NCBI GenBank assembly: GCA_016787925.1
Contig: JAEUSK010000248.1
Location: 26,908 to 90,907 of the forward strand
Direction: 5' to 3'
Length of the DNA: 64,000 nt
Origin: a bacterium
Lineage (GTDB): Bacteria; CLD3; SB21
The notes beneath the pieces are model-generated. The model searched no databases, was not told the DNA's origin, and saw nothing but the letters and a program-made list of their open reading frames with translations. Position 1 is the stretch's first letter, and each line of letters begins with the position of its first letter. Of the stretch, positions 17,541 to 49,064 are shown one piece after another. The position numbers were made by a program, and so were the translations under genes.

Positions 17541-17816
17541 GGTTTATTAATTTTTGAGGAATTCGGCAAAAGAACACATGTAAATGCGCTGTGAAAATCT
17601 GACCAAAACCATTGACAAATCGTTGTTGGCAATGTACATTCCATTGTCTATTCGTAGTTCTTTCTTATCTTAGGGATATTCAACAGTTCTTTTTCAAAAA
17701 AAGCTGAAAATAAGGAAATATACAATTTCAGAAGAAGTACGGAATTTATTCGACACGCGCAATTTTGTTTAGACGCCATTGATAATGGCGGATATGTACA
17801 ATTGTGTTAATCAATA

Positions 17817-18349
17817 GTTATCTGAGATTTGTGGCGCGAACTTCTTCTTACTGCGGTGATATTATGATTTCAAGATTATGTTTCACTCTTTTCCTTATCT
17901 TGATTGTGGTTCCATCATGCGACAAAAACGATGACTCCATAAGTGGAATCACTGAAACTGACGCATTAGGGAACATTATTTCTACGGATGAAAGAGATTG
18001 GCAAATAACTTCATCCAATCATTCTAGCGGCAGCATGCCGTCTCTTCAGCCGGCATATCCAAATCCCACGGATGGACCACTTACATTTCGTTTTGGTTTT
18101 CCTGATACCATGAGAGTAACGATTCAAATTAAGAATTCAAAAAGAGTAATTCGTACGCTTCTTGACAATGAATTTCGACAAATTGGGTATCACACGATAC
18201 AGTGGGACTTGAAAGATGACGAGGGCAACATAGTTCCAAATGGTCTGTACCGTTGTGTCTTCAGTTTTTCGAGTGGAACGAAGACATCTAAAGGATATGG
18301 AGACATAGAAGTAGATGTATTGTAAGCTGCGCCACAAATCTCGGATAAC
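17817..18349. repeat. 21-bp inverted repeat pair (20/21 match) bracketing ORF 17864..18325
   Basis: gttatctgagatttgtggcgc (17817-17837) against gcgccacaaatctcggataac (18329-18349). Confidence 0.7.
17864..18325 (+). CDS. small secreted protein with FlgD-Ig-like (T9SS-cargo-type) C-terminal beta-sandwich
   Basis: The signal peptide is MISRLCFTLFLILIVVPSC. The C-terminus GYHTIQWDLKDDEGNIVPNGLYRCVFSF resembles the FlgD Ig-like domain pattern. Confidence 0.5.
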   Translation: MISRLCFTLFLILIVVPSCDKNDDSISGITETDALGNIISTDERDWQITSSNHSSGSMPSLQPAYPNPTDGPLTFRFGFPDTMRVTIQIKNSKRVIRTLLDNEFRQIGYHTIQWDLKDDEGNIVPNGLYRCVFSFSSGTKTSKGYGDIEVDVL

Positions 18350-18548
18350 ATGCGGCTTACACGTCCGATTCGCGAGCACGATTGAGAATCCCCACAAATG
18401 TGTGTGATTGCTTCGCCAGCAGCTCGCTCACGCATTTAGAATGTTCTTAATTAACTTACATTTTCCTCGCGTGCGAGCTACTTCGTGTAGCCGCCGAGCG
18501 TTGGCGGCAATAACAACGAAGGACTGGTTAACCTAAACAATAGACATA

Positions 18549-19427
18549 ATGAAGACAAGTAAGTACTTATTAATGGTTGTATTGAGTCTGTTGACTTTCT
18601 TGGACTCGAAGTCACAATCTTATTCTGATCTAAATGAACTGGCTGGATTTTCAATTAAGGCATACTATAGCCCAGGTAATGAGGAAAGAGCGAAGGTAAT
18701 TGTTAGACGATGTGAAAGAACAATTGAGTATGTAGAAGGACTCGTGGGATTTAAACCAAAGGTAAGTCTCTTCATATTGAATCCTGAACATTGGAAAAAA
18801 TACGCGACTTTTCCGGTATACGGAATGCCTCATTATCCAGACAGTGAAAGGTTGATTATTGCGTCAGAGGACAACGACTTTTGGAAAAGTTTCATTCCAC
18901 CGCTTGACCAACTCCCAACAGACTTAGCTCATCAGATTAGAAAAGCTTATACCACCTCTGATGGTACATTAAGTATGATGGCGTTCTTTGACCTATTAGC
19001 ACTTCATGAATTGGGGCACGGATTCCACGAACAAGGAGGATTAACAATGCAAAGACTTTGGATGCAGGAATTGTTTTGCAATATCATGCTTCATACTTAC
19101 ATAGCTGAAAAAGAACCAACTAATCTGCCGGCATTAGAAGTATTCCCGGAAATGGTTGTGGCAGCTGGATCAACTGGTTACGAGTTTACCACACTCGCTG
19201 ACTTTGAAAAACGATATGACAATATGGACCCAAAGAATTATGGTTGGTATCAATGCCGACTTCATGTGGCCGGCAAAAATATTTACAATGCAGGCGGAGA
19301 AATTACATTTTTAAAACTTTGGCAAGGACTAAAAGAAAACAAAGAGAAAATGACGGATGAACAGTTTGCTTCTTTTTTAAACGAGAAAGTAAGCCGAGAG
19401 GTTGCAAAAGTTCAAACAGACTGGTGA
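18549..19427 (+). CDS. secreted hypothetical protein with HExxH zinc-binding motif
   Basis: The signal peptide is MKTSKYLLMVVLSLLTFLDSKSQ. The motif is LALHELGHGFHEQ (HExxHxxH). Confidence 0.5.
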   Translation: MKTSKYLLMVVLSLLTFLDSKSQSYSDLNELAGFSIKAYYSPGNEERAKVIVRRCERTIEYVEGLVGFKPKVSLFILNPEHWKKYATFPVYGMPHYPDSERLIIASEDNDFWKSFIPPLDQLPTDLAHQIRKAYTTSDGTLSMMAFFDLLALHELGHGFHEQGGLTMQRLWMQELFCNIMLHTYIAEKEPTNLPALEVFPEMVVAAGSTGYEFTTLADFEKRYDNMDPKNYGWYQCRLHVAGKNIYNAGGEITFLKLWQGLKENKEKMTDEQFASFLNEKVSREVAKVQTDW

Positions 19428-19623
19428 CAAGTTGCTGCCGCCAACAGTGTGTTTATACCGGCTGCGGGTGAAGTGTTAATGTGAAATTTAGTATTTATAT
19501 TTCGTTTCGGCACTTGGGACAAGACGCAGCTTCGAAATCTGCAGACGTCATAAACACGCGTCGTTGGCGGTTATTATAAAACGTGCCATAAGCAATCAAG
19601 ATAAACCGTTAAAAAAACAAAAT

Positions 19624-20190
19624 ATGAGAAAGATAATTGCCGCATTAAATATGACAATTGATGGATTTTGCGACCATACTGCTGGACTACCCGATGATGA
19701 AATACATCAACATTATACGGAACTATTACGTGAGGGAGATGCAATTTTATATGGCAGGACTACGTATCAACTTATGGAATTTTGGCGAACCCTGTTGGAA
19801 AATCCTTCCGAAGAAAAATCAATGAATGACTTTGCTACGGCCATAGACAAAATTCCGAAAATAGTTTTCTCGCGCACCATTAAGAATGTAGAATGGGAAA
19901 GTGCAACAATAGCAAAACGTGACTTAAAGGATGAAGTTTTAGAACTCAAGCAACAATCAGGTAAAGTTATTTTTGTCGGTAGTCGCAGTTTGATTATACA
20001 GCTGATAAAACTTGATTTGATTGATGAATTCCAACTTTGCATTCATCCAGTTGTTGCAGGAAACGGTTTGCCATTATTTGAAAACATAAACGATAGGATT
20101 ATTTTTAGACTCAAAAAAACAAAAATATTTAGAGGTGGTGCGGTAACGCTTTACTATGAGCCGACAAATAAAAAAACAACGAACCGCTAA
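19624..20190 (+). CDS. dihydrofolate reductase family protein (RibD C-terminal-like)
   Basis: MRKIIAALNMTIDGF..ILYGRTTY..VFSRT..VIFVGS matches the RibD_C/DHFR-like pattern. I used the internal Met at 19624. Confidence 0.65.
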   Translation: MRKIIAALNMTIDGFCDHTAGLPDDEIHQHYTELLREGDAILYGRTTYQLMEFWRTLLENPSEEKSMNDFATAIDKIPKIVFSRTIKNVEWESATIAKRDLKDEVLELKQQSGKVIFVGSRSLIIQLIKLDLIDEFQLCIHPVVAGNGLPLFENINDRIIFRLKKTKIFRGGAVTLYYEPTNKKTTNR

Positions 20191-20336
20191 CAAAGTATTG
20201 CCATAAGCCCCACGCTGAACCCGCTCGGGTTAGACTAGGTCATCAAGATTCCGAGAGCCCCGCGTTCTGATCATCGAATCATATCTTTCAGTTCTCACCG
20301 GGCAATCAGGCTAGTTTGTTAACCACTCCCTGTTTC

Positions 20337-20386
20337 CCCCTCCTTTTGCAAATGAGTATCGGGAAACTGTGATACAAAAGGAGGGG
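20337..20386 (+). other. stable stem-loop (12-bp stem cccctccttttg/caaaaggagggg, 26-nt loop) inside a GC-rich ~190-bp intergenic element that is closed by ccccacg...cgtgggg
   Basis: I read this directly from the sequence. There is no U-tract after it. The local GC content is far above neighbouring intergenic DNA. Confidence 0.5.
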
Positions 20387-20401
20387 ACGTGGGGTGGTAT
20401 T

Positions 20402-20428
20402 CTACTCTTCGACTTGCATCGTTTCAAT
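20402..20428 (-). repeat. partial (27-nt) diverged duplicate of the 3' end of the PPIase gene (would encode ..IETMQVEE* against the real ..IETMEIEE*)
   Basis: ctactcttcgacttgcatcgtttcaat is the duplicate, and ctactcttcgatctccattgtttcaat at 20538-20564 is the real gene end. The intervening ~110 bp are bounded by 15-bp palindromes aaaccttcaaggttt (20434-20448) and aaccttgaaggttta (20514-20528). Confidence 0.6.
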
Positions 20429-20537
20429 GTAAGAAACCTTCAAGGTTTATAGAGCCTGATAATTTTTGCATGTGAAATTCTCATATTTCTCTCGTGTCAG
20501 ATTCCGCTCTTATAACCTTGAAGGTTTACACGCTTTT

Positions 20538-21281
20538 CTACTCTTCGATCTCCATTGTTTCAATACTCGTCTTTAGTATCAAGACATTTTCCAGAGGCCG
20601 GTCGCGCGGCCCGCGCTGAACCTGCGCAATTTTATCTACGACATCCATACCGGATAATACTTCACCAAATACCGTATATTCCCCGTCCAGAAAAGGCGTG
20701 CCGCCGATAGTAGTGTAAACGGTTATTTGTTCTTCCGTAAATTGAAAATCGGGTTTGCCCTGCATTTTCATTTGTGATTCGATCCGGTTAAGTTGTTCGG
20801 CCGTAACGGGGCCATTTTGAACGATATAGAATTGACTGCCGCTGGATGCTTTTTTAGGATTAACCTGATCTCCCTGACGCGCCGCAGCAAGCGCGCCGCG
20901 TTTGTGGATGCGTTTGATCTCAGCCGGCGTAGTGTAACCCGGGCCGCCGATACCGTCGTTATTCGGATCGTTGTCTTTGGAATTGGGGTCGCCGCCCTGA
21001 ATCATGAAGTTGGGTATCACGCGGTGAAACGTCGTACTGTCGTAGAATCCTTCGCGGATCAGTTTTCTGAAATTAGCGGCATGTTTCGGCGCGTCTGCGT
21101 CGTAGAGCTGCAGAACGATCTTACCGAATTGCGTTTCCAATACGGCCACTTCACCCTGAACTTTTTTCTTTTCTTTTTTTCCCTGCGCGCATGCGCTGAG
21201 AGTGAACAGGCCGAGCAAGAGCATAGCGAGCATCGCTTGTGTGATCACCCGTGATCGCGGCGTCAAATTTGACTTGAACAA
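20538..21281 (-). CDS. peptidyl-prolyl cis-trans isomerase, cyclophilin type, lipoprotein
   Basis: Cyclophilin motifs FHRVIPNFMIQGGDP..GT.GG and VFGEV are present. The N-terminus has a signal peptide with LSACAQ. Confidence 0.85.
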   Translation of the reverse strand: MFKSNLTPRSRVITQAMLAMLLLGLFTLSACAQGKKEKKKVQGEVAVLETQFGKIVLQLYDADAPKHAANFRKLIREGFYDSTTFHRVIPNFMIQGGDPNSKDNDPNNDGIGGPGYTTPAEIKRIHKRGALAAARQGDQVNPKKASSGSQFYIVQNGPVTAEQLNRIESQMKMQGKPDFQFTEEQITVYTTIGGTPFLDGEYTVFGEVLSGMDVVDKIAQVQRGPRDRPLENVLILKTSIETMEIEE

Positions 21282-34366: not shown

Positions 34367-37180
34367 ATGAAGCTGTTTGATATCTGGCAATTCAGGGTCG
34401 TTGTCGCTGTCTTTGTTATTGTCGCCATAGCGGTTCCGGCTTTGGTTTTCCTGTTGCCCTTTCAATTGCCTGAACCTGCATTATTAAACATCCAATCGCT
34501 GACGGTAAGATTAGTCATATGGCTGATTTGCGTGGCCGCCGGTGTTTTTTTCCTCATAATTAACCTGCAGTCACTCGTCAAGAGACACGAAGTCACAAAA
34601 AAATCACAGCAATTCGACGTCCTTAACGCCGTGCATGAATCCCTTATACGGGAAATCGAACTGGAGAAGGTATTGGAAAAGATTATTGAATTGGCCATCA
34701 CGGCAATACCGGCGGCCGAAAAAGGCTGTGTACTTATTCTGAATGAAGAGAAACGTTATTTAGAAGTAAGGGCTCAAAAGGGATATGATGAACTTCCTGC
34801 AAATTTTCATATCAAACTGGGAGAAGGATATGGGGGAGAAGCTGTATCGCAAGGAAGGAATTTCCTTATTCACGATCTCGATAGGGAGGATGCGCGATTA
34901 CGAACGATCAAGTCGTTTGGTGTAAATAGGCCGCGCATCAAATCCGCAGTGACCACTGTTTTAAAGATGAGAGATAAATGTGTTGGAACGATATCTCTGG
35001 AAAACGGCACAGTCACTCATGCCTTCACAGAACATGATTTGAAACTTCTGGTGTCTCTGGCGTCGCCGGCTTCATTGGCCATCGAGAACGCGATGTTGTA
35101 TGAAAGCGTCCGCAAACATGCCCGTGAACTTGAAATGCTTAACAGGGTTAATTTTGATCTGATCCAATCTCTTGACCTTCAGACGGTTCTGCAAAAGGTT
35201 ATTGATTCAGCTATTACGGCCATTCCAAAAGCAAAGATGGGCACCGTCCTTCTGTTGGATGAAGAAAACAAAAATCTTGTTGTTAAAGCGTTTCGCGGAT
35301 ACGATCCGGAAGTTCTCAAAGGATTCGTTTTGCCTGTGGGTAAAGGCTTTTCAGGCGTAGCAGTATCCCAAAGAAAAAGTTTTATTATTTCTGATTTGAG
35401 TTTGCCCTTATACAAGAAATTTTGGCTTAAGGACGAACAATCTGCGCCGATGAAAATAAGGTCGGCGATGACGGCGGTATTGATGGTCAAAGATAAATTG
35501 ATCGGTACGATTTCTCTTGAGAATCCGCATGAAGCGGATGTCTTTAAAGAGAACGATCTTAAAATTCTTACATCATTTGCTTCGCAGGCCGCGATGGCCA
35601 TTGAAAACGCTAAATTCTATGAGACCCTGGAAAGGGAAGTCGAACAGCGAACGTCCAAACTTCGTGAAATGAACATGAAAATTGTCGAGGCCGATCGTCT
35701 AAAATCGGAATTTCTTGCCAATATGAGTCACGAACTCCGTACTCCGCTGAATGCAATCATCGGCTTTTCAGAATTATTACTTGATGAAGCACAAGAGGAA
35801 GAGATCAAAAACAAACGCGAATGTCTTATTGACATATACCAAAGCGGAAGACATTTGCTTCAGCTGATCAATGACATTCTTGATCTCTCAAAAATCGAAG
35901 CGGGCAAAATGGAACTCCATCTTGAAAATTTTATTATTACGGATCTTATGTATTCAGTTCAAAGAACGGTTGCGCCTTTACTCGACAAGAAAGCGCAAAA
36001 ATTGAAAATCGAGATACCGAAGAACTTCCCTGTGGTATTTGCCGATCCCAAGAAAATAAGGCAAGTGATGTTGAACTTGGTAAGTAATGCCATTAAGTTT
36101 TCGCCCAATCAAACTGAGATTTGCGTGACGTCATCCTATCATGAGGAAAATAAAGGCAATGCGTTTGAAATTACCGTGGCCGATCACGGCCGCGGCATTC
36201 GTGAAGAAGACCAGAAGATTATTTTTGACGAATTTCGTCAGGTCGATGGAAGCACAACGCGAGAAGATCAGGGCACAGGCCTCGGCCTCGCACTTTGCCG
36301 CAGACTCGTCGAAATGCACGGCGGCAGGATATGGGTCGACAGCATTTACGGACAAGGAAGCACTTTCAAAGTTCGCATTCCGCAGAGTCAATCAAAAATG
36401 GAAGAAGTCATTGGAGATCTTAGTCAGGAACGTGCGTATTCCAGCGATTTCATTCTGGTCGTTGAAGACGACCTTCAATCAGCAAATTTGATGAAACGGT
36501 TCTTAGAACTCGAAGGGTATCGCGTGGTGAATGTTCGGAACGGCAATGAAGTCCTGGCCGAAGCAAAAAAGATAAGGCCGCTGGCCATCACACTAGACAT
36601 TATGCTTCCCGGAAAAGACGGTTGGGACGTTTTACAGGAATTGAAGTCCGACAGTGTTACACAGTCTATTCCCGTATTTATCGTATCTGTAATGGACAAG
36701 AAAGACAAAGCGTATGGTCTGCACGCCGATGATTATTTTGTCAAGCCGCTGAATCGCATTCAGATTCTAGACCGAATCGGAGCATTGAAGAAACGTAACG
36801 GAGCTAAAAATCAGATCGACCGCATTTTGGTTGTGGACGATGATGATAACGCACTTTTCTTGACAACCTCTTTCCTGCAGAAAGAGGGGTTTGAAGTCAT
36901 GAATGCCCGGGACGGACGAAAGGCGCTTGATATGATCCGGATGGACAGGCCGGATCTGGTCATTCTCGATCTCCTGATGCCGAATATGAGCGGCTTTGAA
37001 ATGATGGAGATCATGCGTCATGAAAACGAGCTTAAAAACATCCCTGTGATAGTGCTGACAGCGAAGGAATTAACTCCGGAAGACCGTGCGCATATGAGCG
37101 GTCAGGTTAAGAAATTTATGCAGAAATCATCTTACAGTATTCACGACCTTCTGTATGAAATTAAGAGAGTGGTGGGTTAA
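34367..37180 (+). CDS. hybrid sensor histidine kinase: 2 TM, GAF, GAF, HisKA, HATPase_c, REC, REC
   Basis: The H-box is FLANMSHELRTPLNAI, the G-box is DHGRGI...GTGLGLALC, and two receivers carry the phospho-acceptor Asp (ITLDIMLPGKDG and LVILDLLMPNMSG). Confidence 0.85.
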   Translation: MKLFDIWQFRVVVAVFVIVAIAVPALVFLLPFQLPEPALLNIQSLTVRLVIWLICVAAGVFFLIINLQSLVKRHEVTKKSQQFDVLNAVHESLIREIELEKVLEKIIELAITAIPAAEKGCVLILNEEKRYLEVRAQKGYDELPANFHIKLGEGYGGEAVSQGRNFLIHDLDREDARLRTIKSFGVNRPRIKSAVTTVLKMRDKCVGTISLENGTVTHAFTEHDLKLLVSLASPASLAIENAMLYESVRKHARELEMLNRVNFDLIQSLDLQTVLQKVIDSAITAIPKAKMGTVLLLDEENKNLVVKAFRGYDPEVLKGFVLPVGKGFSGVAVSQRKSFIISDLSLPLYKKFWLKDEQSAPMKIRSAMTAVLMVKDKLIGTISLENPHEADVFKENDLKILTSFASQAAMAIENAKFYETLEREVEQRTSKLREMNMKIVEADRLKSEFLANMSHELRTPLNAIIGFSELLLDEAQEEEIKNKRECLIDIYQSGRHLLQLINDILDLSKIEAGKMELHLENFIITDLMYSVQRTVAPLLDKKAQKLKIEIPKNFPVVFADPKKIRQVMLNLVSNAIKFSPNQTEICVTSSYHEENKGNAFEITVADHGRGIREEDQKIIFDEFRQVDGSTTREDQGTGLGLALCRRLVEMHGGRIWVDSIYGQGSTFKVRIPQSQSKMEEVIGDLSQERAYSSDFILVVEDDLQSANLMKRFLELEGYRVVNVRNGNEVLAEAKKIRPLAITLDIMLPGKDGWDVLQELKSDSVTQSIPVFIVSVMDKKDKAYGLHADDYFVKPLNRIQILDRIGALKKRNGAKNQIDRILVVDDDDNALFLTTSFLQKEGFEVMNARDGRKALDMIRMDRPDLVILDLLMPNMSGFEMMEIMRHENELKNIPVIVLTAKELTPEDRAHMSGQVKKFMQKSSYSIHDLLYEIKRVVG

Positions 37181-37181
37181 T

Positions 37182-40100
37182 ATGAAACTGACCATGCAAA
37201 AAGGGCTGATCCGCTTGATCTTACCGGTTATTGTAATCCTCGGATTGGAATCGGCATGCACGGCCCAGGAACTTGAAATCGACTTTGAGAGAATAACGAT
37301 TGAACAGGGACTATCACAAAGCAGTATCAACTGTATAATTCAGGACAGTCGCGGTTTCATGTGGTTCGGCACGCAGGACGGATTGAACCGATATGACGGA
37401 TATGATTTCATGGTGTATAAACGCAGTTCTGTAGACACATTTACTTTATCAAGCAACTGGATTACTTCGTTGTTTGAAGATGTGTCCGGTTCGATATGGA
37501 TAGGCACTCAGGGCGGCGGCCTAAATAAATTTGACCGGTTTACAGAAAAATTTGTTTCCTATATGCACGATCCAAACGACTTGTCCAGTCTAATAAGTAA
37601 TGACGTGCGTTCGGTGCACGAAGATAAAAGCGGAACATTTTGGATCGGCACCGGGAGCGGCGTCTGTACTTTTGACCGCAGAACAGGTAAATTTCAACGT
37701 CTGACTAACGGCAATGGCATTGAGAAAGCATACGTTTCCGCGATATTTGAGGACCGGATCGGACAAATATGGTTTGGCACACAGGGGTCCGGTTTGTATA
37801 AACTGACTAAACAAAAGAATCGCACAACTGTTGTGCATTATACGCATCTGCCGGATTTTGCAAATAGCCTGAGTAACGATTTTGTTAACGCAATATATCA
37901 GGACAACAACAAGACCATTTGGGTCGGTACAGCTGGCGGGCTCAATAAACTACTTTCCGAAGAGACCGGCAGTTTTATTTCATTTAAGAAGAACGACAAA
38001 AACCCTGCAAGCCTTTCTTTTGATCGTGTTCAGACCATTTTTGAAGATCGTCTAGGGATGCTCTGGATAGGCACGGACGGCGGCGGACTCAATTGTTTTG
38101 ATCCGCGTGATCCCACGCGGACTAAGTTCGTTAGTTACACGCAAGACCCGATTAACCTCCGGAGTCTCAGCGAAAATCGTGTCTTCTCTTTGCTTGAAGA
38201 CAAGTCAGGAACCCTGTGGATCGGGACGGGCGGAGGGTTGAGTAAGTTCGACCGAAAGCCCAAGAAATTTGCACATTTTAAAACAGAGCCATACAACCCC
38301 AACAGCCTTAACGTGAGCGAAGTGTGGTGTTTTTACGAAGACAGTGAGGGCATTCTTTGGATAGGCACTAATGGCGGCGGATTAAATCGTTTCGACAGGA
38401 GGACCAATACATTTTCATTTTATCGAAACGAAATAAAGAATGGCCTGAGTCTGAGTGAAGATCGCGTATGGTCAATTCTGCAGGACGATGGCGGAGCGCT
38501 TTGGATAGGCACCAATGGCGGCGGACTGAATAAAATGAATATTGGTGCGGAATCATTTACGCGATACCGTAATGATGCGGCGAATCCAAAAAGCCTCAGC
38601 GATAACCGCGTCAAAGCCTTACTGAAGAGCCGTGACGGTAATATTTGGATCGGCACCCGCGCAGGCGGGCTTAATAAGCTCGATCCGGTATCGGAAACGT
38701 TTGAATCCTATGTGAACGATCCCCTTGATCCCAATAGTCTCAGCAGTAATAATATCTACTCGCTCTATGAAGACCGCGATGACGTATTATGGATAGGAAC
38801 GTTTGGAGGCGGCCTTAATAAATTTGACCGACGAACAGGAAAATTTACGGTATACAGAAACAATCCTAAAGACCCAAGTTCGATCAGTTCAAATGGCATC
38901 CTAAGTATGTGTGAAGATACGAACGGAAATTTTTGGATTGGAACTCAGAACGGCGGGCTGAACAGATTGGACCGGGAGAAAGGTACATTTACAAATTATT
39001 CCCGTGAAGCCGGATTACCCAACGAAGTCGTGTACGCCGTACTCGAGGATAATCAGGGTTATCTTTGGATCAGTACTAATAAAGGGTTATCCCGGATCCG
39101 ATATGACCAGGCCACGGGCAATATGGAAATTCGCAATTACGATCAGCATGATGGTTTGCAGAGCGACGAATTTAACGGCGGCTCTTATTATAAGAATCAC
39201 AAAGGCGAATTGTTCTTTGGAGGAGTAAACGGATTTAATGTATTTCTTCCCGAGGAAGTGAAAGATAATTCGCATGTTTCTCCCGTCGTTCTGACCGCCT
39301 TCAAAAAGTTTGATCGTATTCAGAAACTTGAAACATCCGTTTCTGAGATCAAAGAAATTAAGTTGTCGTACAGGGAAAACGTTTTTTCATTTGAATTTGC
39401 TGCGCTTGATTTTACCAGGCCGGAGAAAAATCAATACGCCTATAAAATGGACGGCTTCGACATTGACTGGATTTACTGCGGTTCGCGGCGTTATGCGAGC
39501 TATACCAATCTGGACGGCGGGACGTACACTTTTAGAGTCAAAGGCACGAATAACGACGGGCTATGGAATGAAGCCGGAGCTGCCGTCACGATTATTATCA
39601 CGCCGGCATTTTGGAATACATGGTGGTTCAGGCTATTGGTCGTATTGTTGGTCGGTTGGGCCGCAGTAGGGTATTACCGTTCGAGGGTAACTGCCGTTCA
39701 AAAGCAAAATGAGATTCTCGAAACAAAAGTAGAGGAACGTACGAAGTCACTTCGCGAAATGAACTCTAAAATCATAGAAACGGACAGGCTGAAGTCAGAA
39801 TTTCTCGCGAATATGAGTCACGAGCTGCGTACACCGCTGAATGCGATCATCGGTTTTTCTGAATTGCTTCAGGATGAAATGAAAGAAAGCGCGACGCCGG
39901 ATCAAATGCAGAGTTTACAGGACATTCACCACAGCGGGAAACACCTTTTACAGCTGATTAATGATATTCTGGACCTGTCAAAGATCGAGGCGGGTAAAAT
40001 GGAACTAAATCAGGAGCATTTTGAGGTGCGGCAATTGCTGGAATTGATCAGACGTACTGTCACGCCGTTATTGGACAAGAAGAGCCAGTTACTGGAAATA

Positions 40101-41270
40101 CGGATCGATGGGGAAATGAAAATTTTTGCCGATCCGAATAAGATTAAACAAGTTATAATCAATTTACTGAGTAATGCGATTAAGTTTTCTTCGCCGGGTA
40201 CCGTGATCGGCATTGAATCCGCTATGCTGCACAACAACCAGCCGCCCATTTTTCAATTGGCCGTGAAGGATAATGGCCGTGGTATTCCGAAGGAATTTCA
40301 CAATGTAATTTTCGACGAATTCCGTCAGGTGGACGGCAGCAGTACACGGGAAGATCAAGGCACAGGACTTGGTCTTGCATTGTGCCGCCGATTGATCGAA
40401 ATGCACGGCGGAAAAATATGGGTTGAGAGTGAATTGAATAAAGGTAGCAAGTTTATTTTCGTGATCCCGCAGAGCCCCGATGGCGAAGAGGCTCATAGCA
40501 AACAAGTGGTTGACGATGGGATTGTAATTGACAACAATTTTATACTGATTATCGAAGACGACGTGCAGTCAGCGAATCTCATCAAACGATTTCTGGAGCT
40601 GGAAAATTACAGAACGATTCACATTAGTAATGGAGCTGACGCGCTTGTCGAAGCCCGAAAGATAAGGCCATTGGCCATTACGCTTGATATCATGCTCCCG
40701 GGAAAAGACGGGTGGGAAGTATTACAGGAATTAAAATCCGATCCCGTGACTCGAGTAATTCCTGTCTTTATTGTGTCCGTAACTGAAAATAAGGACCTTG
40801 CATACAGCCTGCATGCGGATGATTATTTTATTAAACCGCTAGATCGCGACTTGCTGATCGAGAAAATCAATAAACTTAAAAAGTCAAAAAAGAGAAAGAA
40901 AAACGTTTCACAGATATTAGTTGTGGACGATGATGAAAAGGCGCTAACATTGACAGGGACGTTTCTTGAGAAAAAAGGTTTCGACGTTGACAGAGCAAGA
41001 GACGGCGTGGAAGCTCTGCGGAAGATTAAGAACAGTAAGCCCGATCTTCTGATCCTGGATCTGATGATGCCACAGATGAGCGGGTTCGAAGTAGTGGACG
41101 TGATGCGGCAGGATCCCAACCTGAAAGAAATTCCGATCATTATCCTCACCGCTAAAGAACTGACGAAGAAAGAAAAAGATACTCTCAGCGGACAAGTCCG
41201 CTGCCTCATGCAGAAAGCATCTTACAGCACCGACGATCTTTTGTACGAAATAAAACGTGTAATCGGGTAG
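37182..41270 (+). CDS. hybrid sensor histidine kinase: signal peptide, about 13 two-component-regulator propeller repeats, Y_Y_Y domain, TM, HisKA, HATPase_c, REC, REC
   Basis: The repeats are W(I/F)GTxxGGLN(K/R)FD units. A Y_Y_Y-like region ([14 protein letters not shown]) is followed by a TM helix. The kinase-REC-REC module is paralogous to the upstream gene. I used the ATG 1 nt after the upstream stop; the ORF track's start at 37155 overlaps it. Confidence 0.85.
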   Translation: [1362 protein letters not shown]

Positions 41271-47263: not shown

Positions 47264-47513
47264 TTCAATGATTCGAAAGAATTGGGAAAAGCGGAACATG
47301 AACCAAAATTATTTACATGTTAATGCGGGCCGGCTCAAAACACAAGTAAATCTTAAGTGAATTTCGTAACGTCATGAAGCCCGGAGTACACTCAGTCGGA
47401 TATTTTGTGCTTGAGTTCGTTCGACGATTCATGTATTTTAAAAAGGAATATATTCTTGCATGTCGTCGTTGTATACTCATTCACTCTTGTCACATTCCAT
47501 TGCTAAATTTGTT

Positions 47514-48272
47514 ATGCAAAAAATTGTTTTTTGCGGAAGGTTAGTTCTAATTCTCGCGTTTTTTTCCGGCTGCGATAAGGAGAAGGTTAGCGAAGACGCT
47601 CAGATCACGCTTGGCCGGGAATTATTTCATGACACGCGGTTCTCCTCTTCTGGCGAGCAGAGTTGCGCAACTTGCCATCCCGACGGCCACACAGATAATC
47701 GAAAATGGCATTTCCCTGCAATTCACGACTCATCCAGCGGCAAGCCCGATTCGTTAAAAACACTTACGCTCTGGGGTATTGCGCAAACGGGGCCGCCGTA
47801 TTTATGGTCGGGAAGAACGACAGGACTTTACGAAATTACGAAACTTTACACAGATACGATAATGGGCGGCCTGGCGAGCCATGAGGAACTTGAAGCTTTG
47901 GTGGCGTATCAGAAATCTTTAGTTGCTCCTTCAAATCCTTGGATTCGGAACGACGGCGAACTGACGATGGAACAACAAAGAGGAAAAAAAATTTATGAAA
48001 CAAAGGGTTTCTGTTCTCCGTGCCATCCCGCTCCAACGGGCACCAATGGTTTTGTCAAGGATATCGGTACCGGCGGTTTTTTCAAAACGCCAAGTCTTAT
48101 TGCAATGTATTCTAAATCGGATTTTTTTCATGATGGCCGAGCTAAGACGCTACGCGATGTTATTCATTTTTATATTGCCGATCCGGAGAATAAGCTGCGG
48201 GACCATGATTTCATAATTAATTTAAGTGATCAAGAAATTAGTGACCTAATCGAATATTTGAAATCATTCTAA
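47514..48272 (+). CDS. di-haem c-type cytochrome, cytochrome c peroxidase (CCP/MauG)-like, lipoprotein
   Basis: The lipobox is FFSGCDKEK. There are two CxxCH motifs (SCATCHP and CSPCHP). The N-terminal LGRELFHDTRFSSSG...CATCH pattern is CCP-like, but the 252-aa product is shorter than canonical CCPs. Confidence 0.7.
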   Translation: MQKIVFCGRLVLILAFFSGCDKEKVSEDAQITLGRELFHDTRFSSSGEQSCATCHPDGHTDNRKWHFPAIHDSSSGKPDSLKTLTLWGIAQTGPPYLWSGRTTGLYEITKLYTDTIMGGLASHEELEALVAYQKSLVAPSNPWIRNDGELTMEQQRGKKIYETKGFCSPCHPAPTGTNGFVKDIGTGGFFKTPSLIAMYSKSDFFHDGRAKTLRDVIHFYIADPENKLRDHDFIINLSDQEISDLIEYLKSF

Positions 48273-48278
48273 GATAAA

Positions 48279-49064
48279 ATGAGTATGAAACACATAATGT
48301 ACAAGTTAATGATCGGAACGGTCTTAGTTGCTTCCCTTTGTTGTGTTGCATGTGACAAAGAGAAACCAGGTGAAGACCCGCAAATTGCTTTTGGGAGACA
48401 GTTATTCAACGATACCAAGTTTGACAATATTGCCGGTCAAACTTATAGCTGTGCAACTTGCCATCCGGGTGGCGATATGGATCATAAAAAATGGTTATTG
48501 CCGCCTTTATCCACAGATTCAGTTGCCACGCCGACGTTATTTGGGGTTAGCGATACACCTCCTTATTTGTGGTTTGGTGAAGGAGGAAGTGATATTAAGG
48601 CCGTTACGCGCGTAGTCATAGACAGCGTTTTGCATGGCTCCGCGACGGAGGAAGAACTGGACGCACTTGCCGCCTATCAGCTGTCGCTGATTGTACCGGC
48701 GAATCCATGGAGAAATTCCGACGGCTCGCTGACAATGCAACAGCAGAAAGGAAAGGCGGTTTTTGAAGGGCAGGGCAAATGCGGTGTCTGTCATTCAGGG
48801 GAAGCGCTTACGGGAAAGTTTAAAATTCAAATTAAAAAATTGAATCCGCAAGTCGACGTGCCTTCGCTTCGCTGGGTATTTGCCACGGCGCCATATTTCA
48901 GAGATCATTCTGCGGCCACATTGTGGAAAGTTGTTAGTCATTACGCGGATTCGGTTCAGACTGGACAAATGACAACATGGGGATGGAATACACTGGGAAT
49001 TTACGATATTAGTCTAACTGAACAGGAAAAGACTGATTTAATCGAATATTTAAAAACGTTATAG
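48279..49064 (+). CDS. di-haem c-type cytochrome, CCP-like lipoprotein (tandem paralog)
   Basis: The lipobox is LCCVACDKEK. The two haem-binding motifs are CATCHP and CGVCHS. FGRQLFNDTKF is shared with the upstream paralog. The gap to that paralog is 6 bp. Confidence 0.7.
   Translation: MSMKHIMYKLMIGTVLVASLCCVACDKEKPGEDPQIAFGRQLFNDTKFDNIAGQTYSCATCHPGGDMDHKKWLLPPLSTDSVATPTLFGVSDTPPYLWFGEGGSDIKAVTRVVIDSVLHGSATEEELDALAAYQLSLIVPANPWRNSDGSLTMQQQKGKAVFEGQGKCGVCHSGEALTGKFKIQIKKLNPQVDVPSLRWVFATAPYFRDHSAATLWKVVSHYADSVQTGQMTTWGWNTLGIYDISLTEQEKTDLIEYLKTL

Follow-up and report, generated by a model that had tools for sequence, protein, structure and literature searches.

ORF153, an open reading frame of 154 codons, is closely framed by a 21-bp inverted repeat, and we interpret its two arms as probably the halves of an attC hairpin base that was split when ORF153 was inserted as an integron gene cassette. 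Elements of this kind are well known, whereas the present locus and its host lineage are undescribed. All positions refer to the window, i.e. the whole 64-kb stretch of DNA that was analysed, and the features of the locus are listed in Table 1. A slash within a sequence marks the crossover point or boundary under discussion.

Table 1. Features of the ORF153 locus with their positions in the window
Feature	Position	Strand	Details
Sigma-70-like promoter match	17612-17640	+	TTGACA-17-TACATT, 10/12, consensus scan only
Left arm of the repeat	17817-17837	+	upstream-junction G and cassette nt 1-20; base-paired to the right arm when the joined circle is folded
Parts of the left arm		+	GTTATCT (17817-17823), remainder of the core site (R'); GAGATTTGTGGCGC, 14-nt stem extension
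Proposed ORF153 cassette	17818-18500	+	683 bp, from after the G of G/TTATCT to the G of G/TTGGCG
ORF153 CDS	ATG 17864 to TAA 18323-18325	+	153 aa (154 codons), identical to NCBI MBL7996322.1 (JNM05_13210)
Right arm of the repeat	18329-18349	+	14-nt stem extension GCGCCACAAATCTC plus R'' GGATAAC (18343-18349)
Putative ORF153 attC	18343-18506	+	164 nt; R'' GGATAAC 18343-49, spacer AT, L'' GCGGCT(T)ACACG 18352-63, branched variable region
3' half of the ORF153 attC	18484-18506	+	L' CGTGTAGCCGC 18484-94, spacer CGAGC, R' G/TTGGCG 18500-06, chimeric with the next cassette
Second cassette	18501-19563	+	CDS of 292 aa, 18549-19427; demonstrably mobile unit
attC of the 292-aa cassette	19439-19569	+	131 nt; R'' CGCCAAC, AGT, L'' GTGTTTAT … L' ATAAACAC, GCGTC, R' GTTGGCG; folded
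Third cassette	19564-20320	+	CDS with RibD_C domain 19624-20190, Pfam E 1e-15; 3' end of the array approximate
Third attC, degenerate	~20185-20320	+	~136 nt; R'' CGCTAAC over the stop codon, AAA, L'' GTATTGCC … L' GGCAAT; folded

The inverted repeat around ORF153

Repeat and sequence searches of the window reproduced the structure described in an earlier note on this DNA, a 21-bp inverted repeat with 20/21 identical positions bracketing a 154-codon ORF. The left arm reads GTTATCTGAGATTTGTGGCGC and the right arm GCGCCACAAATCTCGGATAAC; both comprise 21 nt, are complementary at 20 of 21 positions and lie 491 nt apart, and pairing stops at both ends. The gap between the left arm and the ATG amounts to 26 nt and that between the stop codon and the right arm to 3 nt, so that the distances of 27 bp and 4 bp given earlier are right as offsets. 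The outer ends of the repeat are exactly GTT (17817-17819) and AAC (18347-18349), the crossover triplets of integrons. Judged from base composition, 0.0012 pairs with at least 20/21 matches and arms within 1 kb are expected by chance per 64 kb (0.04 pairs at any distance), and the 21-mer, allowing up to 3 mismatches, was present in none of 100 dinucleotide-preserving shuffles of the window, which bears out the claim that such a repeat is unlikely to arise by chance. No third copy of the 21-mer was found within the window, and among the repeat pairs listed for the window no other near-perfect inverted repeat of such length has its arms within a distance of 1 kb.

The product of ORF153 carries a lipoprotein-type signal (…VVPSC/DKN) and shows a weak match, below the cut-off, to a FlgD-Ig-like beta-sandwich domain (PF13860, E 3e-4). 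Relatives are few: only one other cluster was retrieved among 5.8 billion protein clusters, consisting of MAG proteins with 57-61% identity, one copy of which is located on a contig labelled phylum CLD3, and no relatives were found in the JGI metagenomes. The homologues from CLD3 MAGs have other gene neighbours and are devoid of a bracketing repeat, an attC or a structured downstream region. Therefore the repeat does not travel with the ORF153 family at 57-61% identity. In exact-protein look-ups the 153-aa form and both neighbours were absent from the record, while the 173-aa form with a GTG start retrieved one Logan contig (L006), which is discussed below. The ORF153 cassette itself is known from a single genome. 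As a separate observation on the homologous loci, G-rich hairpins flank the ORF153 homologue in the CLD3 MAGs (L002, 9826-9951), and comparison of two closely related MAGs of this lineage (L002 10478-10545 versus L007 10478-16081) revealed about 5.5 kb inserted immediately behind the homologue. The insertion contains a 286-aa ORF, a 1240-aa FlgD_ig/fn3 protein and CsgG, and is followed by a glyoxalase gene.

A mobile cassette and its attC family downstream of ORF153

The gene next to ORF153 encodes a 292-aa protein that belongs to no Pfam or NCBIfam family. Homologues with 80-92% amino-acid identity are present in MAGs annotated as Saprospiraceae, Chitinophagaceae, Ignavibacteriae, Bacteroidetes and others, and in the three loci compared (L010, L016, L019) their neighbourhoods are always different and unrelated to the window; copies at about 91% identity stand in such unrelated contexts, and the data suggest a widely shared cassette to which no function has been assigned. 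On plasmids the 292-aa gene gave only a weak partial protein match. The window and L016, an ENA contig, are unrelated up to CG/TTGGCGGCAAT (18500) and share at least 90% identical DNA beyond this point. The boundary of the alignment reads …C/GTTGGCGGCAAT, with the crossover G/TTGGCGG at 18500, and the similarity passes the 292-aa stop codon and the adjoining 131-nt hairpin (Table 1) before it stops past the GTT box.

In L016 small ORFs are arranged on the same strand with imperfect hairpins of 110-140 nt between them, which start with CCGCYAAC (R'') and end with GTTRGCGG (R'). At least six cassettes are found between 3900 and 9130 of this contig (SLATT, DUF4240, TPR, the 292-aa gene, a split beta-lactamase-like ORF and others), their attC sites are fairly homogeneous and have an inner GTGGGACAA motif in common, and no integrase was detected within the 12.9 kb fetched. 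Features described for attC sites are an R box with AAC and GTT, an unpaired spacer, an L box, a variable terminal structure and a chimeric R' at cassette junctions (PMC5027507), and the features of the hairpins in L016 and behind the 292-aa gene are these defining ones.

The L stem covaries over five attC sites, with 7 of 8 pairs changing on both sides; the observed score was reached in 0 of 500 shuffles, and controls with slid positions collapsed. A family covariance model (R1) was built from five attC sites including that of the 292-aa cassette, which as a training sequence scores 117 bits. R1 recovers the held-out sites L010 1260-1394 (84 bits) and L016 8112-8251 (25 bits) and, in additional contigs, detects sites that precede the 292-aa gene.

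The putative attC of ORF153

Comparison of the next cassette with L016 fixes the 3' boundary of the ORF153 cassette. The sequence from the ORF153 stop codon to 18500 terminates with the core site that belongs to the following junction, and for this reason we assign it to the attC of ORF153's own cassette. The 5' boundary would be set by the GTT with which the repeat begins on its outer side and by the complementarity of this end to the cassette's own R''. The right arm is followed by 2 nt and then by an L-type stem of 11 pairs with one bulged T in L''. The spacers of this site measure 2 nt and 5 nt, those of the neighbouring attC 3 nt and 5 nt. An L stem of this kind at attC-like spacers was obtained with P ~4e-5 in 200,000 shuffles of the interior with the anchors AAC at 18349 and G at 18500 held fixed. 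This anchor-conditioned test replaced a generic scanner for AAC…stem…GTT, which was unspecific (7 matches compared with 7.1 in shuffles). When 18500 is joined to 17818, the sequence folds into a hairpin whose 22-bp base is the repeat; an internal loop separates this base from the L stem, which carries a branched structure at its tip. Folding of the joined circle on both strands yielded -50 and -53 kcal/mol. An arrangement in which a single giant attC has ORF153 as its loop was rejected, because its polarity is wrong, with GTT and AAC at the outer and not at the inner ends of the arms.

Complementarity between the start of a cassette and its own R'' was found in 7/7 comparison cassettes (2 from the window, 5 from L016) and extends over 8-15 bp, with 8-10 bp in five of them and 14/15 in two of L016. 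Own pairs score at least as high as nearly all cross pairs, the main exception being the two copies of the 292-aa cassette when paired crosswise. The 20/21 repeat is the extreme end of this family-wide pairing. The geometry of ORF153 suits a cassette, with R'' beginning 17 nt after the stop codon and the ATG at a distance of 46 nt from the cassette start. For the sister cassettes the distance from the stop codon to R'' is about 10-20 nt, unless R'' overlaps the stop codon.

Model R1 gave a weak match in the ORF153 region at 18411-18509 (14 bits, E 0.006 within 4.3 kb). Leaning on conserved loop sequence, it picks another R'' (CGCCAGC, 18414-18420). In no other array or context was the ORF153 cassette found (one instance), unlike the 292-aa cassette. 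Within the variable region, the stretch 18390-18409 (CCCCACAAATGTGTGTGAT) partially repeats, in direct orientation, the inner portion of the right arm (CGCCACAAATCTCGG) and resembles the family consensus of R'', spacer and L''; this segment may be a decayed attC half-site.

Genomic context of the array

ORF153 and the 292-aa cassette are followed by a third cassette with a degenerate attC (Table 1). Its R' may be GTTTGTT or GTTAACC, and the site ends near 20314-20324; R1 failed to detect this site, and its 3' end is the least certain of the boundaries. The array is preceded by an AT-rich spacer of 276 nt, and the promoter match in this spacer could drive the otherwise promoterless cassettes. 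No structure resembling attC or attI was recognisable upstream of 17817. We also considered the 265-aa gene upstream as a fourth cassette and rejected it, as no attC-like structure lies between 17541 and 17816. When this gene was used to search for an empty site, only few homologues (36-61% identity) on short, non-syntenic contigs were obtained.

The earlier note had stated that the window contains no recombinase, and this was substantiated: 52 ORFs (at least 90 aa, chosen greedily without overlap) over the 64 kb gave no Pfam match to an integrase, resolvase or transposase, with E-value limits of 1e-4 to 0.1 that varied by search. Housekeeping genes lie on either side of the array: mutL, miaA and the serine dehydratase gene precede it, and the peptidyl-prolyl isomerase gene follows. 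Elements with at least two attC sites and no nearby integrase (CALIN) are common (Cury et al. 2016, PMC4889954). In the window one strong attC site and two sites argued from structure occur within the 4 kb applied to this category; of the intI and attI that stand beside the array in a complete integron, the former is missing among the 52 ORFs of the 64 kb and the latter is not recognisable upstream of 17817. Because no recombinase is present among the 52 ORFs and housekeeping genes are on both sides, the array of three cassettes fits the CALIN category.

Some further structures in the window were noted. Downstream of the array, before the convergent gene for peptidyl-prolyl isomerase is reached, there is a strong hairpin at 20330-20400 (CCCCTCCTTTTG…CAAAAGGAGGGG) and, in the same intergenic stretch, a second one at 20434-20527 with 22-nt arms that are 86% complementary and a 50-nt loop; the fold z-score of 20188-20540 is -4.3. 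Two adjacent hybrid histidine kinase/response-regulator genes (34367-37180 and 37155-41270) share several blocks of 70-77% DNA identity at a spacing of about 4090 nt and look like a tandem pair of paralogues, the second of which contains repeated 64-nt propeller units. Tandem paralogues are likewise found at 47460-48272 and 48279-49064, where two genes resembling di-haem cytochrome c peroxidases have blocks of 73-75% identical DNA spaced by about 790 nt.

Proposed origin of the repeat

Integron integrases integrate circular cassettes with a cut in the attC hairpin between the G and the TT of R'. In the origin that we propose, the 3' half of the hairpin base (TTATCT…) would after insertion come to lie upstream of ORF153, and behind the stop codon attC would begin with the 5' half (…GGATAAC, R''). 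Owing to this position of the cut, an integrated cassette starts with bases that are complementary to its own R'' (PMC5027507). At this locus the integrase would have inserted the cassette at the G/TT of 17817/17818. In the excised circle the arms would pair again as the base of the attC hairpin, followed by the unpaired spacer, the bulged L stem of 11 bp and the branched variable region. The predicted junction of this circle is …CCGAGCG/TTATCTGAG…, i.e. CTTCGTGTAGCCGCCGAGCG/TTATCTGAGATTTGTGGCGC; an array without the cassette would read ACAATTGTGTTAATCAATAG/TTGGCGGCAATAACAACGAA and the site without the array ACAATTGTGTTAATCAATAG/TTTGTTAACCACTCCC. From its structure and its neighbourhood we infer that the ORF153 cassette is mobile.

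The 14 bp of complementarity past the R box are not predicted by the standard model. The long stem may stabilise the folding of the long attC (164 nt). A more general suggestion, which we regard as doubtful, is that a long base stem is a functional trait of this attC family, which folds long hairpins (130-165 nt) or fits a divergent integrase, or else a relic of cassette making. In the latter version the ORF may first have been bracketed by an inverted repeat during cassette formation. This bears on the unsolved question of how gene cassettes originate. The only homologue of ORF153 is a non-cassette CLD3 gene without attC. If the long stem is functional, it would extend the structural rules for attC sites, which are relevant to the prediction of cassette mobility and to engineered attC recombination.

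With this locus, a poorly known uncultured lineage gains a record of a small cassette array, and the 292-aa cassette is common to this bacterium and to MAGs annotated as Saprospiraceae, Chitinophagaceae and Ignavibacteriae. A near-perfect inverted repeat whose GTT start precedes an ORF and whose AAC end follows it can serve as a sign of integron cassettes, also where no integrase is nearby and standard attC models may fail.

Alternative explanations

An unlikely variant of the integron reading uses another register, in which the inner GTGGCGC and GCGCCAC form the crossover box and the left arm is the remnant of an identical upstream attC, left for instance by duplication and deletion. The inner boxes indeed resemble the family boxes GTTGGCGG and CCGCCAAC, GCGCCACAAA located 3 nt after the stop codon resembles the family consensus CCGCCAACAA, and a second partial copy is present at 18390-18409. 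This register would however require GTG and CAC in place of the conserved GTT and AAC. In addition, the matching L'-R' half (GTTATCCGA…GTGGCGC) is absent near 18500 and the matching R''-L'' half upstream of 17817, both with up to 3 mismatches allowed, and the exact ends of the repeat at GTT and AAC are left unexplained. The two registers differ in the excision junction, which would be placed at 17831/17832 in this variant and at 17817/17818 when the outer GTT and AAC are the crossover triplets.

It was also suggested that the arms are transcribed and pair as a duplex of the 5' and 3' UTRs, which loops the mRNA and affects its stability or translation; as the cause of the repeat we find this quite improbable. 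The predicted duplex was obtained, as the RNA minimum free energy fold of 17810-18356 has a terminal stem of 22 bp (z = -5.3). Since the repeat itself guarantees this stem, the fold adds no independent evidence. No Rfam match was found between 16 and 20 kb of the window, and the only homologues are without the repeat. A duplex would form if both arms were transcribed, is unneeded for explaining the repeat and could be a consequence of the cassette structure instead of the reason for it.

A further proposal, that of an invertible segment, holds that the arms are crossover sites of an invertase encoded elsewhere and that flipping of 17838-18328 switches the lipoprotein gene off relative to a promoter outside. 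Short inverted repeats around such segments are the geometry of known invertons, and both the near-perfect 21-bp repeat around 491 bp and the promoter-like site at 17612-17640, outside the segment, agree with it. We nevertheless judge it very unlikely. No recombinase is encoded in the 64 kb, and the two assemblies available share one orientation: the independent Logan contig L006 (run SRR12144677, 1002 nt) is 100% identical to 17724-18725 of the window, which derives from the NCBI MAG, and unbroken at the arms. An inverted orientation is recognisable only across the whole arm (TCAATAGTTATCYGAGATTTGTGGCGCAGCTTACAAT), as a short junction k-mer also occurs, as the reverse complement, at the native right junction. 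An inverton moreover explains neither the GTT and AAC ends nor the L stem that follows nor the adjoining cassette.

The arms could finally be the terminal inverted repeats of a MITE-like non-autonomous transposon carrying ORF153, since they closely bracket a single small ORF, an explanation that we consider hardly credible. No target-site duplication surrounds the repeat (flanks …ATCAATA and ATGCGGC…), no other copy of the 21-mer was found in the window, in metagenome contigs or in viral contigs, a search of 185,579 species-representative genomes yielded one single-arm match in Leptospira, apparently due to chance, and a plasmid collection contained no DNA similar to the ORF153 element. The broader suggestion of a small non-autonomous mobile element survives in part: a mobile unit is apparent and the repeat marks a recombination site, but the unit is most likely an integron cassette (17818-18500) and not a transposon with terminal inverted repeats. 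Nor is the right arm an end of the unit: with its R'' it opens, on the 5' side, the putative attC of 164 nt, which reaches 18506. A chance origin of the repeat was rejected as improbable (~1e-3 per window) and would leave the adjoining stem unaccounted for.

Comparison with known systems

Among known systems the ORF153 locus is most readily compared with integron cassettes and their attC site (59-base element), with which it shares an ORF followed by an imperfect hairpin on the same strand, an R'' ending in AAC and an R' starting with GTT, as well as the unpaired spacer, the L stem and the variable region. It departs from them in several respects. A textbook R box has 7 bp, whereas the complementarity at ORF153 extends over 21 bp. 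Its R boxes match the consensus at 5/7 positions each (GTTATCT compared with GTTRRRY and GGATAAC compared with RYYYAAC); the sister boxes CGCCAAC and GTTGGCG also deviate from this consensus. The spacers are 2-3 nt and 5-6 nt as opposed to 5-6 nt on both arms. A single extrahelical base is seen, the bulged T in L'' (GCGGCT[T]ACACG), and not the two or three bases at a defined spacing that canonical sites have. With 164 nt the site lies outside the usual range of attC sites, quoted as 57-141 bp (PMC5027507).

With invertons the locus has in common the short near-perfect inverted repeats around a few hundred bp; it differs from them in that no invertase occurs in the window and no second orientation in the two assemblies, and in that the repeat stands in an attC-like context. 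The resemblance to CALIN elements (PMC4889954) comprises two to three attC sites within 2.5 kb, no integrase nearby, cassettes with unassigned functions and few homologues, and housekeeping genes on the flanks, with the difference that one of the three sites in the window is strongly supported by a covariance model, R1, which was trained on it. Cassettes can also insert at genomic GWT sites (Loot et al., bioRxiv 10.1101/2022.09.11.507474). As in such insertions at attG or secondary sites, the upstream junction …AATCAATAG/TTATCT has the G/TT of a GWT insertion point and is preceded by neither attI nor attC. Insertion at a secondary site is one of several possible origins of the array, beside the loss of an integrase and rearrangement.
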